Position numbers and translations under genes: made by a program. Shown in pieces: positions 2,627 through 9,248 of a stretch of DNA of 9,320 nucleotides. The stretch lies in IMG/VR virus record IMGVR_UViG_2651869781_000010; one strand, 5' to 3'. This DNA comes from a virus. Its lineage: Duplodnaviria > Heunggongvirae > Uroviricota > Caudoviricetes. The notes under the pieces were generated by a model. It made no database searches. It saw only the letters and a program-made list of their open reading frames with translations, and had not been told where the DNA came from. The stretch's first letter is position 1; every line of letters begins with the position of its first letter.

Positions 2627-3178
2627 TCACTCCTGTATATCGTTAATGTCATTCAGGCGTTGCTGAAAACGCAGATGTTGTGCCGGGGTGTAAGAGCCCT
2701 GGCAATCACGAATCATCCCGGGGTCTGGCATCAAACCGGATTCATCCAGGATCTCACGATAATCCCCGGCAATTTCAGGCGGTGTTATTGCCAGCTGGCG
2801 AACCAGAGCACTGCGTAATATACGGGACGCAACGTCAACCCCTCCGCGCCCCTTCAGGAACGGAGCCAGTGCAGATGTCAGGGCTGCCCCATTCGCCTGC
2901 ATAAAATTGCTGAGAGCAGCTTCTGTGCAGGCCTCCATCAATAAATGCTGCGAGTAAATGCATTCGCGAGCAGCACAGTTAATTTGCCATTTCAGCACAT
3001 CCAGACGTTCCCGCAGTAATTCGAGCTGTCGGGCATAATCTGTTGGTTTTTCTGTGGCAGCGAGGAGAGATGCTATCTGTTGTTCAACGGCTTTTCGGGT
3101 CTCACTATGTCCGGCCCACAGAATACGGGCATTCCGAAAACTGGTAAGTGCCTGGTCAGGTGTGCCTCGGGCCGTCAT
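2627..3178 (-). CDS. psu: Psu-like protein (polarity suppression / capsid decoration), 183 aa
   Basis: All-helical 183-aa protein. Segments KWQINCAARECI, FMQANGAALTSALAPFL and YTPAQHLRF resemble P4 Psu as I remember it (KWQVNQAAGRYI, FMQQHGTALAAALAPEL, FTPAQNMIF). Length is close to P4 Psu (190 aa). The ATG overlaps the stop of the upstream gene (ATGA). The comparison is from memory, not from an alignment. Confidence 0.55.
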   Translation of the reverse strand: MTARGTPDQALTSFRNARILWAGHSETRKAVEQQIASLLAATEKPTDYARQLELLRERLDVLKWQINCAARECIYSQHLLMEACTEAALSNFMQANGAALTSALAPFLKGRGGVDVASRILRSALVRQLAITPPEIAGDYREILDESGLMPDPGMIRDCQGSYTPAQHLRFQQRLNDINDIQE

Positions 3179-3918
3179 ACAGCTTTCTCCTTCTCAGCAA
3201 GTTCCTGACGAACCTTTATTTTATGCATAGCTGCCGGAGAGAGTTGATTACTGAAATCCAGACGCGCCGCATAATCCGGGGCAACTCCCGCCAGTTTAAA
3301 CACCGGGTCCTGTTCAGGCATCGCATCGTTAGCCAGAGCCGGTCTGGTGATATGTTTATGAATAAAGTCTTTCAGCACTGTGTCCGGGTCATTAACTGAA
3401 TTCACCACACCCACAACGGCACTGGCTTCCCGGCCCATTGTGGATTTAAGCAGGCTCAGCGTCTGAATAAGCGCTTTTCCATGCGACTGCATAAAATCTT
3501 CCCAGATTTGTTTTGCGCGAATATCCACAAGAATGTTATGCGCGTGGATATACTTTCCGGCTAATTCCGCAGCTTTCTGCGGCAAAAGTGCATTTTCGCT
3601 TTCCTGAGCCGCCAGCAGCTCATCAAAATCCTCAAGCGTTTCTCGTCCCAGCGCAATTTCCGTGCGCAGTTTTTTCATTTCCTTTGAGACCACGCCCTGA
3701 CTTTCACGAAACAGCGTGCGCCACTCCTCATTCAGTGTGTTCGTCGTGGCTTCCATTTCAGCGCGACGCTGGCGGATTGTCGCAATATTATCCGCTGCAG
3801 CTTTCTGCTGACGACGTGCTTCAAGCCATGCGTTTCTGGCTGTGTTCATGGTTTCCAGTGCCCGCTGCGTTACAGCCGGAAAAGTGGAAAGGTTGTTATT
3901 CACTGCGGTGTTGTTCAT
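3175..3918 (-). CDS. 247-aa coiled-coil protein, putative Sid-like capsid size-determination scaffold (assigned by size and position only)
   Basis: ATG at 3918..3916 with AGGAG 6 nt upstream. Helical, charged, Ala/Glu/Arg-rich sequence. It is the first gene of the late operon directly behind the Ogr-type promoter, and P4 Sid is 244 aa. No sequence motif was recognised. Confidence 0.4.
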   Translation of the reverse strand: MNNTAVNNNLSTFPAVTQRALETMNTARNAWLEARRQQKAAADNIATIRQRRAEMEATTNTLNEEWRTLFRESQGVVSKEMKKLRTEIALGRETLEDFDELLAAQESENALLPQKAAELAGKYIHAHNILVDIRAKQIWEDFMQSHGKALIQTLSLLKSTMGREASAVVGVVNSVNDPDTVLKDFIHKHITRPALANDAMPEQDPVFKLAGVAPDYAARLDFSNQLSPAAMHKIKVRQELAEKEKAV

Positions 3919-3952: not shown

Positions 3953-4008
3953 TGTGTCGTGGCTGACACAAGCACACTATCGGTGCTCAGTGTGTGGTGG
4001 CTGGCACA
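3953..4008 (-). promoter_or_regulatory. late promoter with two Ogr/Delta-type TGT-N12-ACA dyads (Psid-like)
   Basis: TGTGTCGTGGCTGACACA (3953-3970) and TGTGTGGTGGCTGGCACA (3991-4008) are near-identical, with centres 38 bp apart, and lie 35-90 bp upstream of the ATG at 3918. P2/P4 late promoters use a TGT-N12-ACA activator site centred near -55, and P4 late promoters have a second promoter-proximal site. Confidence 0.6.
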
Positions 4009-4096: not shown

Positions 4097-4292
4097 GGTG
4101 GAACAGGTGAAACATGTGTTACTGCTTTGTTTTATAAAGCATTTATATACACTGCACCGGTGGAACATCGCGGGTAACAAGGTGGAACAGCGGATTGGCT
4201 GGCGTTACATCTGTTCCACCTCACTATTTCAGAAGGTGGAACAGGTTCAGCCCTGTAAAATACGGTTGTTCCACCTGTTTCACCTGTTACCC
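4097..4292. repeat. iteron cluster, candidate ori/crr-like replication element bound by the primase
   Basis: GGTGGAACA at 4097-4105, 4159-4167, 4181-4189 and 4235-4243. Variant GGTGAAACA at 4106-4114. Inverse copies TGTTCCACC at 4212-4220 and 4267-4275, and TGTTTCACC at 4276-4284. Close to the P4 alpha-binding octamer TGTTCACC. Located in the 400-bp non-coding gap immediately 3' of the primase gene. Confidence 0.7.
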
Positions 4293-4318: not shown

Positions 4319-6991
4319 TTAACCCGGCACCTCGCTGTTGAAGACATAGAGCCTGCGGGGATTCATCTCTGGCGGGCGAATGGTTGTCTGGAGTTTGCCA
4401 TCAGTGGAGGGCAGCAGGTATCCACGATCTACGCACAGACGCGCCACCTTGCGCGGGTCAAATCCCCTGCAGATTTCTTTCCAGCCGGACGGCATGACAT
4501 AGAACGTAGTGACAGCTTCCGTGCCCTGCGCGGTACTGCCTTTCTCCACCCTGCGCCAGCCCACCATATTGCCGGGGCGGTTGCGCTCGTCATACCAGTC
4601 TGCAAAGCGGCTGTACTGATTCGCGGTAAAGAAACTGCGAACCTGCTCCAGTGCGGCGATATCTTCCTGATTGGCGGTGTGCCCGCGATCTTTCAGCCAT
4701 GCGTTCAGGCAGACGCGGGTTGCCCGCAGTGCTTCACCCTCAGGCCAGCCGGTGATACCCAGACGGGTTGCCAGTTCACCTGCCATCGCCACCAGTGCAA
4801 AGCGGTTCACAGCCCGGCCCACCTGATTGCCTGCATCTTTAGGAGTCAGGGCGGCAGCATATTCCTTCATCAGCGATTTTGCCTGTGCCGTTAGTCCGTT
4901 AAGATCAGCGGTCAGTGCTTTCAGCCACTCCCGGAACGGCGAACCGTAGTAGCAGGACGTGGCCCATTCAAGATGCTCTGCCAGAGCCTTGCCGCTGTCG
5001 AAGCCGTGCAGCTCCTCAAAAACGCCAAACTTCCCGGAATCGCTTGGGATCTGGATCATCCTGACTTCCATCCCGGCAAAAGTACGCTCACCGGCCTTTG
5101 CCGCATGTTCGGTCAGAGACAACTCGCCAGTTGAAAAGAACAACAGGCGCCACTGCTTACGGGTACGCAGCTCACCGTCCGTACCGGCACGGCCCTTGCC
5201 CTGACCGTTTGCCAGCATGTAGGCGATATTGCCTGCCTCGCGTCCGTCAACTTCCCGGATCTCATCAAGCATCATGGCGGCATCGTTGCGGCGGCTGGCG
5301 CATCCCTCCAGCGCGTTGCCGGTGGCCCGCCATGTCTGCCAGTAGTCAGGCCCGCCGCAGACGGAGGTTGCCGCTTTCATGGTGGTGGTCTTACCGTCTG
5401 TCGATTCCCCTTTTAGGTGGTAGCCGCCGCCGTCCATACCAACCAGCCGTAACAGTGGTGCAGCAAAGGCCAGGCTGACAGCAAATGCCACGCGGGAGTT
5501 GCCGGTACAGTAGCGGGATACATGCTCCCGCCATTCCTCTGTTGTGCCCGACACGCGGAAATCACGCCCCTGCACGGAAGTGGTCTGGAGAATGACACCC
5601 TCTGCACCTTCACCGCTGACCTCATCCTGCAGGACGTAAACCTGACCATGCCAGCCAGTACGACTGACGCAGGTCACGCGGCGTTCCGGTTTACACAGTG
5701 AGATATATTCCATCAGGCGTGCGCGTGCCTCACCGGTGGTGCTGATATAAGACAGCCCGTTAACCAGCAGTACCCGGCGCAGTTCCTCACCACTGCCGCT
5801 CAGCATTTCCATCGGCATCGCCCAGCGGCGACACTCACCCCACGTATCTTCCCATTCCAGCAGTCGTCCGAAGTTACCGCCATCGGCATCGCAGGTGATT
5901 GCCGTCACGCGCAGCGGGCTGCATATTTTGACGTTCTGGATCTCCGTCTCACCGTTGCGCTGTACCTGCTTTTCATACCAGAGATATTCCTGGGTAAGAC
6001 GGAACCCGTGCGGCAGTTGCGTGCGGCCTTCCCCGCACAGTACCAGACCGTTGCGAAAGGCTTCACGGGCACGGGTAATACCGTGCTCCCGATGAAAGTC
6101 ATTCCAGTCAGCCTTAATCTCTCCTGGTGGCAGGGTCATCCAGCCGCCAACAGCTTTTGCCGCCCGTTCAGCAAAGGCTCTGCCGGGATTCTCACCCCCG
6201 TCCTGAAAATCGTTATCACCGGCGATGATAATTTTTACCTCAGGCCAGCGTGCCCGCAGCGACTGCGCCACATTGGGCAGGTTGCCCGCAGATATGGCAG
6301 CCACTACGCATCCGGCAGTGAGCTGGCTTACCGTCAGCGCCGTAGCGTAACCTTCGGTAATCACCACCTGTACCGGTGGTTCAGACGGTAACGGGCTGAG
6401 CGACACAAACGCGCCTTTCATCGTGCTGCCGGGCAGTATGCTTTTTTCACCCGTCGGGGCGATAAGCTGTGCACCGGTCACGGCTCCGGTGTTGGTCGTG
6501 AGTGGTAACAGCAGGGAACCGGTAGGAAAATCCTTACCGCTGATATGCTGCACGCTTCCGGTCAGAGAGGCCGGGTATCCGGCGAACCCTTTTCCTGTCA
6601 GATAGGCGCTTTCTCCCGTGTGGCTCTCTTTCATCAGCGCCGCCACGGTAAGACCCATGTCGCGTTTAGGGGCTTTTTGTCTGGCAGGCTTAACAGGCAG
6701 TTCCTGCACATCCGGCACATTAAGCACCTGCGCCACCTCCTGCGCAGCCTTTCTGACGCTGTAACCGGTTACGAGCTTAACCAGATCCAGACCGTCACCA
6801 TTGCCACACTGGCTGCAGATCCACGTCCCGCGCCCGTCAAGGTCATCAAGGCGAAAACGATCCTTGCCCCCACATTTCGGGCAGGGACCGTGCCTGCCGT
6901 TTTCAGGTACATCAATACGCAGCATCTGCAGAATAACGGGCCATTTCCCCCGTGCGGCGGCTGAAATCTGCGTAACCGTCTGTATTGTCAT
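4319..6991 (-). CDS. P4 alpha-like primase/helicase (N-terminal zinc ribbon, TOPRIM primase domain, SF3/D5-type P-loop NTPase), 890 aa
   Basis: CPKCGG...CSQCG zinc ribbon near the N-terminus. VVITEGYATALT and IIAGDNDFQDGGENPG are TOPRIM acidic motifs. Walker A GESTDGKTT lies mid-protein. The ATG at 6991 overlaps the upstream stop (ATGA) and has a GAGGGGG Shine-Dalgarno sequence. The iterons lie just downstream. Confidence 0.9.
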   Translation of the reverse strand: MTIQTVTQISAAARGKWPVILQMLRIDVPENGRHGPCPKCGGKDRFRLDDLDGRGTWICSQCGNGDGLDLVKLVTGYSVRKAAQEVAQVLNVPDVQELPVKPARQKAPKRDMGLTVAALMKESHTGESAYLTGKGFAGYPASLTGSVQHISGKDFPTGSLLLPLTTNTGAVTGAQLIAPTGEKSILPGSTMKGAFVSLSPLPSEPPVQVVITEGYATALTVSQLTAGCVVAAISAGNLPNVAQSLRARWPEVKIIIAGDNDFQDGGENPGRAFAERAAKAVGGWMTLPPGEIKADWNDFHREHGITRAREAFRNGLVLCGEGRTQLPHGFRLTQEYLWYEKQVQRNGETEIQNVKICSPLRVTAITCDADGGNFGRLLEWEDTWGECRRWAMPMEMLSGSGEELRRVLLVNGLSYISTTGEARARLMEYISLCKPERRVTCVSRTGWHGQVYVLQDEVSGEGAEGVILQTTSVQGRDFRVSGTTEEWREHVSRYCTGNSRVAFAVSLAFAAPLLRLVGMDGGGYHLKGESTDGKTTTMKAATSVCGGPDYWQTWRATGNALEGCASRRNDAAMMLDEIREVDGREAGNIAYMLANGQGKGRAGTDGELRTRKQWRLLFFSTGELSLTEHAAKAGERTFAGMEVRMIQIPSDSGKFGVFEELHGFDSGKALAEHLEWATSCYYGSPFREWLKALTADLNGLTAQAKSLMKEYAAALTPKDAGNQVGRAVNRFALVAMAGELATRLGITGWPEGEALRATRVCLNAWLKDRGHTANQEDIAALEQVRSFFTANQYSRFADWYDERNRPGNMVGWRRVEKGSTAQGTEAVTTFYVMPSGWKEICRGFDPRKVARLCVDRGYLLPSTDGKLQTTIRPPEMNPRRLYVFNSEVPG

Positions 6992-7371
6992 ACTTCCCCC
7001 TCATACAACGTCACACCGGTACTGCAGAAGTCATCAAAGGCCGCCGGAAGCGTGCGGTACATCTCCGCCATCACTTCACAGCCGCGCGCGGTCAGTACCG
7101 GCGGCGCGGTCAGCAGTGATGGCTCCAGCATGTCAGTCAGCAGTGCCAGCGCGGCAGCGGCGCCCTGCACTTCGCCGTACTCGTTAATCAGTACGCACTC
7201 GATATGCAGCGCAATGGCCATTTCAATACGCTCCACCGTCAGGCTGTGCGGACCATACTGATCACTGCCAGTTTCGTTCAGCATTTTCTGCCGCCATGCT
7301 GAAGCAATAGCCCGCCGGTAAAGCGCGGTGGTCATTTCTACCGGGAAAATGGAAACCTGCGGCTGGTTCAT
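6988..7371 (-). CDS. hypothetical protein (127 aa), primase-operon gene
   Basis: ORF with ATG at 7371..7369, AAGGAGG upstream, and 4-nt ATGA overlaps with both neighbours. GC-rich codon usage matches the primase. No motif recognised. Confidence 0.6.
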   Translation of the reverse strand: MNQPQVSIFPVEMTTALYRRAIASAWRQKMLNETGSDQYGPHSLTVERIEMAIALHIECVLINEYGEVQGAAAALALLTDMLEPSLLTAPPVLTARGCEVMAEMYRTLPAAFDDFCSTGVTLYEGEV

Positions 7372-7652
7372 CTGGCACCTCCTTCAATCAGTGCGCAGCT
7401 GTGTGCAATATCCGTCAAATCTGCCAGCAGGTACTCCATCAGCGCGGCGACACCATGCGCACAGCCAGCGTCCAGTGCTCCGGCCTGAGACGGGTATTCA
7501 GAAAAGAGAAGCTGGAGCATGTCGCAGGCATTTTTTGCGCGGGTCAGCTTTCCGAAACTGTCCTCTGACAACCCATAGGCAAAAGCACCGGTATTGTGTT
7601 TTTCAGGCAAAGTGTGGCCCTGAGCACCGTTGTGCCCGTTTGAAATATTCAT
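7368..7652 (-). CDS. hypothetical protein (94 aa), primase-operon gene (position and size reminiscent of P4 epsilon, unverified)
   Basis: ATG at 7652..7650 with GGAG 9 nt upstream. The stop overlaps the next ATG. No motif recognised. Confidence 0.55.
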   Translation of the reverse strand: MNISNGHNGAQGHTLPEKHNTGAFAYGLSEDSFGKLTRAKNACDMLQLLFSEYPSQAGALDAGCAHGVAALMEYLLADLTDIAHSCALIEGGAR

Positions 7653-7683
7653 CGTGGATTACTCCGTTTTCAGCGGTATTTTG

Positions 7684-8043
7684 TCAGAGAAACTTTGAAT
7701 AGTGACCGTCGTCAGGCTCAGCAGAACGCCATATGCTACGCTCCCGCCAGCGGATAAATAGCACAGACGGATGCAGTGTCAGCGGGCCGGAACCACTACC
7801 GCCTGCAGGAGCTGGTGCAGGCTTAAAGAGCGGTACATCAAACAGGCGCGTATACCGCTGTTCAAACCATGCCAGAGGGCAGGAAGAAAGCTGGTTGTCG
7901 CTGTCATGACGTATCAGCACTTCACAGCTGAATTCAGGATTAACCAGCGCCACAGAGGGCGAGGCTTTAATTAATCGGATAATCGTGACCGTCCAGCCAC
8001 GTTCATGCTGCCAGCGTTCGCCGGGTTGCGGATAATTACGCAT
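7684..8043 (-). CDS. hypothetical protein (119 aa from the ATG), primase-operon gene
   Basis: The track ORF starts at a TTG at 8073. The ATG at 8043..8041 (MRNYPQPGERW...) with GGAGG 5-6 nt upstream is preferred. Contains a Pro/Gly-rich linker (KPAPAPAGGSGSGP). Confidence 0.55.
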   Translation of the reverse strand: MRNYPQPGERWQHERGWTVTIIRLIKASPSVALVNPEFSCEVLIRHDSDNQLSSCPLAWFEQRYTRLFDVPLFKPAPAPAGGSGSGPLTLHPSVLFIRWRERSIWRSAEPDDGHYSKFL

Positions 8044-8212
8044 GTTCACCTCCGCAGGGAATGCGCCCGGCAAAGCTCAGTACATAGTCCGGGGCAAGTC
8101 TGCGCCGCGCTGATCGCTCGTTATCTGCGGTGATCCTTAACATCACCGGACGGGCATTACGTTGACTGCGGTTGATCGCCGCAAATAACCAGGTACACTT
8201 CTCTTTAGCCAT
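8036..8212 (-). CDS. small hypothetical protein (58 aa), first ORF of the primase operon
   Basis: ATG at 8212..8210 with GAGG 9 nt upstream. Translates as MAKEKCTWLFAAINRSQRNARPVMLRITADNERSARRRLAPDYVLSFAGRIPCGGEHA. Its TAA (8038..8036) overlaps the ATG of the next gene by 8 nt. It is the 3' part of the 244-aa track ORF 8036..8770, whose upstream portion looks spurious. Confidence 0.35.
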   Translation of the reverse strand: MAKEKCTWLFAAINRSQRNARPVMLRITADNERSARRRLAPDYVLSFAGRIPCGGEHA

Positions 8213-8287
8213 CTTCGTTGCCTCATATAGCGGTTTGGTCAGAAGCCCGGTTAGTGTTGCTGCACTGTCGGGCTTCGCACTCACAAG

Positions 8288-8380
8288 GTGAATCGCACCT
8301 TCACTTTTAAAGCTACCCTTAAGTGAATCGCACTTCAAGTCTTTTATTATCATTTTTTTTGCGTATACTGAATCGCACCT
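8288..8380. promoter_or_regulatory. divergent control region: three direct repeats (candidate operators) plus the -10 element of the plus-strand regulator gene
   Basis: GTGAATCGCACCT (8288-8300), GTGAATCGCACTT (8323-8335) and CTGAATCGCACCT (8368-8380). The third overlaps a TATACT -10 (8364-8369) located 30 nt upstream of the ATG at 8400, which has AAGGAG at 8386-8391. The region separates the primase operon (minus) from the RHH-like gene (plus). Confidence 0.5.
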
Positions 8381-8399
8381 AACGCAAGGAGATCCAGTA

Positions 8400-8585
8400 A
8401 TGGCAACGGGTTCAACTAACAACAAGTCGCAGCAACTTAATGCTCGTTTCCCACATGATGTAGTTGCAGAATTAGAAAGCAACCTTGAAGATGGGGAAAC
8501 GAAAGCGCAATTTATTGTTACCGCTGTAAAAGGCGAGATTAAACGCCGACAGCGCAGGAAAAATAAGCTAGAGCAAGTAAGCTGA
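8400..8585 (+). CDS. small DNA-binding regulator, probably ribbon-helix-helix type (61 aa)
   Basis: ATG at 8400 with AAGGAG 8 nt upstream. The segment QLNARFPHDVVAELESNLEDGETKAQFIVTAVKGEI has a strand-helix-helix pattern typical of Arc/CopG-like proteins, followed by a basic tail (KRRQRRKNK). A terminator follows. Confidence 0.55.
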   Translation: MATGSTNNKSQQLNARFPHDVVAELESNLEDGETKAQFIVTAVKGEIKRRQRRKNKLEQVS

Positions 8586-8648
8586 ATAGAGAAGCGAATA
8601 GACGTTCTCTCAGATTCCATGCTAATTTCAGTAAGCGACAATATTTTT

Positions 8649-8680
8649 AAGCCCACAAACTCATTTTGTCGGGCTTTTTT
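8649..8680 (+). terminator. Rho-independent terminator after the RHH-like gene
   Basis: Stem AAGCCCACA (8649-8657) / TGTcGGGCTT (8667-8676) with a one-base bulge and a 9-nt loop, followed by a T-run (8675-8680). It sits between the convergent RHH-like and AlpA-like genes. Confidence 0.5.
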
Positions 8681-8681
8681 A

Positions 8682-8912
8682 TTAGTGATTTTCATGCCGT
8701 TCACCACGAGAGGCATATATTTGCTCTTGAATCCAGTGATCGACTTCGCTTTCAACAAATGAAATTGCACGAGTTCCTATTTTCACCGGGCGGGGAAATG
8801 TATTGTTTGAAAGCTGTTTGTAAAGCCATGCCTTGCTACGCTGAACGCGTCTTAACACCTCTTTTGCTGAGATAAGGGTCTGATTCTCTGAAAGGTTGTT
8901 TGCATATTCCAT
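8682..8912 (-). CDS. alpA: AlpA/Vis-family phage transcriptional regulator / excisionase-like protein (76 aa from the ATG)
   Basis: ISAKEVLRRVQRSKAWLYKQLSNNTFPRPVKIGTRAISFVESEVDHWIQEQI matches the AlpA/Vis helix-turn-helix signature (...S.STIYR....G.FP.PIKLG.R...W...E...WI). The track ORF begins at a GTG at 8957. The ATG at 8912..8910 with GGAG 8 nt upstream is preferred. Confidence 0.8.
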   Translation of the reverse strand: MEYANNLSENQTLISAKEVLRRVQRSKAWLYKQLSNNTFPRPVKIGTRAISFVESEVDHWIQEQIYASRGERHENH

Positions 8913-9193: not shown

Positions 9194-9248
9194 ACAGTAT
9201 TACACTGTATTACCCCCTATAGCCCCTTAGAGCCTCTTGTAGCCCCTT
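9194..9248. repeat. two sets of tandem decamer-scale direct repeats in the AT-rich region upstream of alpA
   Basis: ACAGTATTAC (9194-9203) directly followed by ACTGTATTAC (9204-9213). Then TAGCCCCTT (9220-9228), a degenerate copy AGAGCCTCTT (9229-9238) and TAGCCCCTT (9240-9248) with roughly 10-bp periodicity. Confidence 0.4.

Follow-up and report, generated by a model that had tools for sequence, protein, structure and literature searches.

A conserved three-site array beside a YlcI/YnfO-family gene as a probable repressor-operator module in Enterobacterales satellites

Canonical P4 silences its replication operon by RNA (CI), and at the P4 CI and P1 c4/icd loci, where a leftward replication operon is kept off, the first leftward gene encodes a small toxic Kil/Icd-like protein. 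A protein-based form of control is known from lambda OR, in which three adjacent operators are common to back-to-back divergent promoters, one of them driving the gene of an HTH repressor, and from heteroimmune lambdoid imm regions, in which exchange of the operators along with the DNA-reading part of the repressor results in immunity types. Ribbon-helix-helix (RHH) repressors of the P22 immI, CopG and omega type belong to phages or plasmids, and Arc/CopG-type systems use either a 21-bp tetramer operator or contiguous heptads. Among the satellites themselves, the regulator gene of Gram-positive PICIs (SaPIs), encoding the large HTH protein Stl/Rpr, is divergent from the excision/replication operon. 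A repressor of the Stl/Rpr type is expected to maintain the island in a silent state pending the arrival of a helper; Gram-negative PICIs are reported to be induced via the activator AlpA, and the existence of a repressor in them has been called unclear (PMC6092414).

The window analysed here, a 9,320-nt stretch of Caudoviricetes DNA (IMG/VR record IMGVR_UViG_2651869781_000010), was read as a P4-like satellite from its gene content in profile searches. Encoded on the minus strand are an Ogr/Delta zinc finger (2349-2630), Psu (2627-3178), a Sid-like Psu paralogue (3175-3918), a Zn-ribbon/TOPRIM/DUF927 primase-helicase recognised by Pfam matches (4319-6991), a DUF5375 protein (6988-7371) and an Icd-like (cell-division-inhibitor-like) protein (8036-8212; NCBIfam NF033153, 84 bits). 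The Icd-like gene heads a leftward operon of which the primase-helicase gene is the final gene, and the order from Icd-like gene to primase is also seen by synteny in the related loci L001-L004 and L083. On the plus strand lies the gene of a 61-aa RHH protein of the YlcI/YnfO family, the proposed repressor (8400-8585, with the Shine-Dalgarno sequence AAGGAG at 8386-8391), followed by a minus-strand AlpA-family gene (8682-8912; Pfam PF05930, E 2e-11) that is convergent with the repressor gene and has the same orientation as the Icd/primase operon. The repeats of interest sit in the 187-bp gap (8213-8399) between the Icd-like gene and the 61-aa gene.

An exact shared 10-mer, TGAATCGCAC, starts at 8289, 8324 and 8369, at start-to-start distances of 35 and 45 bp, and the three copies, their intervals and their coordinates in the divergent gap are exactly as the initial annotation had given them. 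The corresponding sites are O1 (8288-8300, GTGAATCGCACCT; core 8289-8298, with the 13-mer GGTGAATCGCACC at 8287-8299), O2 (8323-8335, GTGAATCGCACTT; core 8324-8333) and O3 (8368-8380, CTGAATCGCACCT; core 8369-8378). The GTG-N5-CAC core that had been attributed to every copy holds for the first two, whereas in the third, whose opening bases are shared with the end of the -10 hexamer TATACT (8364-8369), the core is accordingly CTG-N5-CAC. Any 10-mer present three times arose in 5 of 20,000 dinucleotide-preserving shuffles of the 187-bp intergenic region, and the triple 10-mer is far above chance expectation; a window-wide shuffle test that allowed up to three mismatches was too permissive to be informative (88 of 200 shuffles). 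Allowing up to three mismatches, neither strand of the 9.3-kb window has a further copy of the repeat. Spacings of 35 and 45 bp are out of helical phase, and cooperative looping is therefore not implied.

The repeats are almost certainly DNA-binding sites of the adjacent RHH protein, as judged from the comparative evidence given below, and there is a good probability that they are its operators, through which it would silence the replication operon and autoregulate its own gene. One dimer would bind each site of ~13 bp, GGTG-N5-CACC, via its N-terminal beta-ribbon (residues ~11-17), with specificity residing in the central bases. Occupancy of O1 and O2 would block the leftward promoter, P_left, switching off the operon from the Icd-like gene to the primase and leaving the integrated satellite quiescent, and O3, lying on the -10 and the start of the rightward promoter, P_right, would provide negative autoregulation. 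The array may thereby act as the induction switch of the satellite.

Seen in this way, the locus shares with P4 CI RNA and P1 c4/icd both its genomic position and its presumed task of keeping the leftward replication operon off, as well as the Icd-like nature of the first leftward gene, but the window lacks an RNA of the C4/isrK type, control here being apparently by protein and operators, and it has in addition a separate candidate cis-antisense RNA over the icd start. The likeness to lambda lies in the three operators common to two divergent promoters set back to back, with the repressor gene under one of them, and in the apparent exchangeability of the operators with the DNA-reading part of the protein; unlike lambda, the predicted repressor is RHH rather than HTH, the sites are 35-45 bp apart rather than adjacent, and neither a Cro-like partner nor a RecA-cleavage domain is evident. 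As with Stl/Rpr, the regulator gene is divergent from the satellite operon, but the 61-aa RHH protein is unrelated to that large HTH protein. Relative to the P22 Arc/Mnt (immI), CopG, omega and AmrZ proteins, the sequence similarity of the 61-aa protein is sub-threshold, the host is a satellite rather than a phage or plasmid, and three 13-bp GGTG-N5-CACC sites at 35/45 bp take the place of a 21-bp tetramer operator or contiguous heptads.

In 196 E. coli genomes the region is present in near-identical form, and many other E. coli genomes match only up to 8252-8273, ending just left of site 1 (O1). In a more sensitive search, relatives with 70-80% identity were found whose match starts at 8286-8287, which is exactly site 1, and homology with other E. 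coli elements breaks at 8252-8286. The comparison covered four E. coli loci, 28 loci from one genome per species, loci of selected proteins and the PICI EcCICFT073, and the genera among the first 33 loci included, besides E. coli, Citrobacter, Dickeya, Pectobacterium, Morganella, Proteus, Xenorhabdus, Photorhabdus, Serratia, Cedecea and Enterobacter. The order in all loci is an Icd-like gene (minus strand), a gap of ~190 bp, a YlcI-like gene (plus strand) and usually AlpA (minus strand), and the primase families and other genes vary between loci, with TOPRIM/DUF927, DNA-primase family and RepA helicase versions observed.

Three sites in a fixed layout were found in 82 related modules of Enterobacterales satellites. 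Among the first 33 loci, sites 2 and 3 are separated by 45 bp in 32, and the distance from the -10 to the ATG is 30 nt in 32 (29 nt in L022), with site 1 lying 22-26 or 35-36 bp left of site 2 in direct or inverted orientation. In an alignment of ten same-type loci from at least six genera, three blocks are invariant: site 2 together with the TCAA next to it, the -10, and site 3. Copies of site 1 in direct orientation are conserved as well, and the DNA between the blocks varies. Site 2 is invariant within each specificity type. A fourth, inverted copy of the site is present in the P_right spacer, between sites 2 and 3, in L022, L033 and L036 (e.g. GTGCGGTTCAC in L033 and GTGGTATTCG in L036), and these loci encode long-form proteins of 98-103 aa.

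P_right was assigned to the -10 hexamer TATACT (8364-8369, plus strand) with a weak -35, CTTTTA (8341-8346), and a predicted start at ~8376. P_left (8310-8338, minus strand) was assigned to the -35 TTGAAG (reverse complement of 8333-8338) and the -10 TAGCTT (reverse complement of 8310-8315), separated by a 17-nt spacer, with a predicted start at ~8303. A consensus promoter/terminator scan of the window listed neither of them, each having 7 of 12 sigma-70 positions, and the assignments are therefore drawn from conservation. At the fixed position of the P_right hexamer, 77 of the 82 modules have TATACT (66), TATAAT (8) or CATAAT (3). The P_left pattern TTGA(A/C/G)(G/A)-17/18 nt-TAnnnT lies beside site 2 in about 25 of 27 loci, the best versions being TTGACA-18-TATCAT and TTGACG-18-TATAGT, and the conserved TCAA block right of site 2 is the reverse complement of the start of the P_left -35.

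With respect to these promoters, the centre of O1 is at ~+10 of the predicted leftward transcript, O2 lies within the 17-nt spacer of the predicted P_left, at ~-25 of P_left and ~-48 of P_right, and O3 (~-3 of P_right) overlaps the final two -10 bases and the predicted start of the repressor gene's promoter. The overlap of the third copy with the -10 of the RHH-like gene, first proposed from the window sequence, is thereby borne out by the comparative analysis, and the proposal of an operator array between divergent units, repressing the replication operon and autoregulating, likewise gains comparative support. The positions of O1, O2 and O3 would fit repression of the Icd/primase operon together with autoregulation, and it is from them, and from predicted rather than mapped starts, that we infer repression rather than activation; the mode of induction is likewise inferred.

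Were the YlcI-like protein to bind the repeats mainly as an activator or dual regulator, which appears unlikely, the weakness of the P_right -35 in most loci (it is good in a few, e.g. TTTACA and TTCACA) and the placement of O2 at ~-48, a classical activator position, would find a ready explanation, and even under the repression model O2 could also stimulate the repressor gene from there. However, O2 falls within a normal 17-18-nt P_left spacer, O1 at ~+10 and O3 on the -10/+1 of P_right, all of them occluding positions, and the over-long spacers that MerR-type spacer activators use are absent here.

The assignment of the RHH protein as the ligand is based on the correspondence, across the 82 modules, between residues 11-15 of the protein and the site core, with 13 strand types each having its own core. 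QQLNA goes with TGAATCGCAC in 58 modules, QMTTV with TGAAATACAC, QLTTV or QLFTV with TGAAACACAC, RQKTA with TGACTCCCAC, QS[LVI]T with TGTCTTACAC, KKMQA with TGTGCTCCAC, LQVSV with TGAACACCAC and QQIGA with TGAACCGCAC, and QALKA goes with TGTGGCCCAC in two unrelated elements, the E. coli P4-like element L003 and the PICI EcCICFT073. Variation is concentrated in the central five bases and in residues 12-15, with little change in the outer GTG/CAC and in R16. RHH proteins read DNA via these strand residues, and swapping them switches Arc/Mnt specificity. The rule from residue to site is not perfect, since the long-C-terminus QQLNA proteins of L036/L037 have partly degenerate sites, TGAATCGCAA and TGAATACCAC.

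Out of sample, the cores predicted from the protein were found for P0084 (L034/35) and EcCICFT073, and geometry alone recovered two new site types, in L084 and L085. When contigs were instead selected by an exact TGAATCGCAC pair (copies 20-40 nt apart), 40 of the 41 found in IMG/VR carry a gene encoding KSQQLNARFP 31 nt after the last site, the 41st being cut at the contig end. Comparatively, the strand residues thus co-vary with the repeated sites and site 1 occurs in both orientations, as in RHH-type specificity. The co-variation could partly reflect linkage of adjacent DNA and gene; linkage alone is argued against by the constancy of the sites across diverged spacers and by the recurrence of types in unrelated elements.

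A natural swap separates the candidate partners. The window and L003 are 90-100% identical over 6906-8265 and 8530-~9200 and only 42-70% identical in 8266-8530, the interval that contains the three sites, both predicted promoters and the first ~43 repressor codons. AlpA and Icd are nearly identical between the two elements, yet the sites and the strand residues differ. Since AlpA, Icd and the neighbouring primase-operon genes are left nearly unchanged by the swap, none of them is the specificity partner of the sites, and the comparison points to the N-terminal part of the YlcI-like protein as that partner. The interval 8266-8530 would then represent an exchangeable immunity cassette, in which the DNA-reading part of the protein moves as a unit with the operators and promoters, potentially giving rise to many heteroimmunity types.

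Vis acts at P4 P_LL, and the AlpA/Vis protein (8682-8912), as a ligand of the repeats, would control excision and early genes. This is very unlikely, despite AlpA being a known E. coli PICI activator (PMC6092414) that is encoded beside the module in nearly all loci. The AlpA proteins of the window and L003 are near-identical (155 versus 161 bits to self) and their sites are TGAATCGCAC versus TGTGGCCCAC; the QALKA/TGTGGCCCAC type is paired with unrelated AlpA proteins in L003 and EcCICFT073; and the AlpA proteins of L024/L025 and L027 score identically against that of the window, yet the site types of these loci are different. The window/L003 swap, in which AlpA is unchanged and the sites differ, excludes AlpA as the ligand. 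Among the ligands initially put forward (the RHH-like protein, AlpA/Vis or a helper-phage protein), the YlcI/YnfO-family protein is therefore retained, on the co-variation of residues 11-15 and the cassette swap, and AlpA is not.

That a helper-phage protein (P2 Cox or Ogr-like) is the primary ligand, with the sites serving as helper sensors, is highly improbable. P2 Cox activates P4 P_LL, and satellites must sense helpers, but the site sequence follows the satellite's own adjacent gene rather than the host genus, exact site pairs in IMG/VR are confined to positions ahead of the cognate gene, and the module had neither a DNA nor a tblastn match in the GenBank phage collection. A search for the same motif in helper phages had been suggested in the initial annotation; no helper-phage copy of the motif pair was found in these collections. 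Dyads of the Ogr/Delta type, TGT-N12-ACA, are located elsewhere, at 3953-4008: TGTGTCGTGGCTGACACA (3953-3970) and TGTGTGGTGGCTGGCACA (3991-4008) lie 38 bp apart just upstream of the sid-like gene, in what is presumably the pattern expected of Ogr/Delta-activated late promoters.

There is next to no likelihood that the repeats are replication iterons forming an origin for the primase-helicase. They are direct repeats near the replication operon, and P4 alpha binds short iterons in ori and crr, but a better origin candidate is present at 4097-4285, the module is common to elements with different primase families, and the part of the primase operon compared between the window and L003 (from the last ~30 primase codons onward) is 90-100% identical where the sites differ. 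The iteron reading was rejected, as variation in the sites does not follow that of the adjoining primase-operon sequence, primase 3' end included. The 4097-4285 array, between the sid-like gene and the end of the primase gene, consists of at least eight copies of GGTGGAACAG/TGTTCCACC in both orientations; it resembles the P4 type I iteron TGTTCACC and, by this analogy, is likely a replication origin.

An action of the repeats as RNA in the manner of P4 seqA/seqC, with the copies in divergent transcripts pairing, is scarcely credible: the 5' ends of the leftward and rightward mRNAs would contain O1 and O3, respectively, direct DNA repeats that are divergently transcribed do give complementary RNAs, and P4 immunity is RNA-based, but site 1 is inverted in many same-type loci (L017 and L018 versus the window), destroying complementarity, site 2 lies between the -10 elements of the two promoters and would stay untranscribed, and C4/isrK/CI-like matches were absent from the window, with no Rfam family at gathering score in the whole window and no C4 or isrK match in a relaxed scan of 7950-8720.

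The protein favoured as the ligand, the 61-aa product of the rightward gene, belongs to the YlcI/YnfO family (NCBIfam NF041551, 65.8 bits against a cutoff of 30, residues 9-50) and also matches PHROG phrog_949 (E 1e-23), which carries no function. An exhaustive profile search of 1.8 billion proteins yielded 85 family representatives at 50% identity, which makes this a small family. AF2 prediction with 34 close homologues gave a mediocre model with no informative structural matches, and with a more diverse alignment of 45 sequences gave a model with a pLDDT of 90.4. In this confident model, an extended N-terminal segment is followed by helices at 19-27 and 35-60, an arrangement that resembles the CopG, omega and Arc RHH repressors, and an RHH fold is thus supported by modelling. 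Membership of an RHH family at the sequence level is sub-threshold, with hhalign probabilities of 28-37%. The alignment of K9-G32 onto Arc S5-N29 (E 3.5e-4, probability 37%) places Q12/N14/R16 on the base-contacting Q9/N11/R13 of Arc. A PDB profile search returned 3no7 ("putative plasmid related protein", E 0.12) and Arc (E 0.5; four variants listed), in the range of E 0.1-0.9. The 61-aa protein had no Pfam match at E<=0.01 and no phmmer match in the PDB, and among 26 family members sub-threshold Pfam matches were obtained to CB_ParB_C (8/26) and PSK_trans_fac (3/26).

Immediately left of the array, a candidate cis-antisense RNA of ~75 nt (~8206-8280, plus strand) would cover the ribosome-binding site and start codon of the Icd-like gene. 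It is preceded by the promoter-like TTGATC (8172-8177)-16 nt-TACACT (8194-8199) on the plus strand, and the first icd codons include a conserved -10-like TAnnnT. The loop of the first of its two hairpins holds an anti-Shine-Dalgarno CCUC, and the second, at 8242-8276, is terminator-like and ends just before O1. In the two-hairpin consensus, 95.6% of cells are paired and 11 of 23 pairs have compensatory changes, and none of 500 shuffles was as good. The plus strand is indicated by ~49 G-U cells that would be A-C mismatches on the minus strand and by a fold z-score of -3.2 versus -2.2 on the minus strand. A weak symR-like Rfam match, at 24 bits, was below threshold in the relaxed scan. The two-hairpin RNA looks like a cis-antisense lock on the Icd-like gene, and it ends where the swappable cassette begins.

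The module is not confined to P4-like elements. EcCICFT073, the model Gram-negative PICI, carries it at L083:12474-12852 (region 12474-13053), with a YlcI-like gene of the QALKA type, two sites of sequence GGTGTGGCCCAC and one of CTGTCCCCCAC, and a divergent Icd-like gene that heads the primase operon; both small genes have late-added locus tags only. Further E. coli satellites share the Icd protein and have another small divergent gene in this slot. Two such genes are Arc-like alternative repressor genes (L039:2014-2318 and L040:2014-2324; phrog_228, E 9e-6 and 3e-3) with palindromic sites of their own, ATGGTAATTACCAT in two copies and TGTGTAATG-N3-CATTACACA. The slot therefore appears to be a general position for immunity cassettes, since unrelated repressor genes with their own sites occupy it. 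As hhalign of the YlcI-like family against the L039/L040 proteins was not significant (E 0.11 and 0.29), occupation of the same slot is what is asserted here, and homology is not claimed.

The same NCBIfam family includes K-12 YlcI (DLP12) and YnfO (Qin), also known as DUF3950, and K-12 YlcI has the same R-x-[FP]P...helix signature. K-12 ylcI is situated beside nohD and cos in a lambdoid prophage, without an Icd-like neighbour, and has no triple repeat upstream, so that this operator layout characterises the satellite subfamily rather than YlcI/YnfO genes in general. In the literature searched, no paper was found with a function for YlcI/YnfO or an account of these operators, and a 2026 survey lists YlcI/YnfO in cf-PICIs only as a "prophage-associated protein" (PMC13612085). 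A repressor-operator immunity module is ordinary in kind; what is new is a previously unassigned family in this probable role in these satellites.

A more general model can be advanced only tentatively, at somewhat below even odds. YlcI/YnfO RHH proteins may be the master repressors of Gram-negative satellites, including P4-like elements without CI RNA, PICIs such as EcCICFT073 and cf-PICIs, encoded in swappable cassettes with at least a dozen heteroimmunity types and accompanied by a cis-antisense RNA that locks the Icd-like gene. Upon helper infection, repression might be overridden by AlpA-driven, possibly antiterminating, convergent read-through. Such read-through from alpA is a plausible override, put forward here as speculation; Pseudomonas AlpA is described as an antiterminator (PMC7969949).

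For the YlcI/YnfO (DUF3950) family, the analysis proposes a specific role open to experiment, having mapped the operators and predicted the residues that set specificity, and the same module is present in the experimentally tractable EcCICFT073. If confirmed, the model would define heteroimmunity groups among very common Enterobacterales satellites, explain the mosaic break-points beside the Icd-like gene and supply a set of small orthogonal repressor/operator pairs. If the repression were wrong, a clean natural co-variation of a protein-DNA recognition code in an RHH family would still stand.

Several minor features were noted elsewhere in the window. On the 3' side of the repressor gene, a plus-strand hairpin, AAGCCCAC...GTCGGGCTT followed by TTTTTTATT (8650-8681), appears by eye to be a one-way plus-strand terminator and is absent from the terminator scan output. 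P4-like satellites keep defence hotspots beyond delta and psu, and in the window this position (771-1941) is occupied by two function-unassigned minus-strand genes, for proteins of 315 aa and 79 aa; the 315-aa protein has only weak N-terminal PADLOC matches (PDC-S73, E 9e-8; Aga TIR-type, E 3e-4). In the AT-rich region beyond alpA, a C-rich 16-mer, CCCCCTATAGCCCCTT, is present in three copies with 10-bp spacing at 9213-9248.
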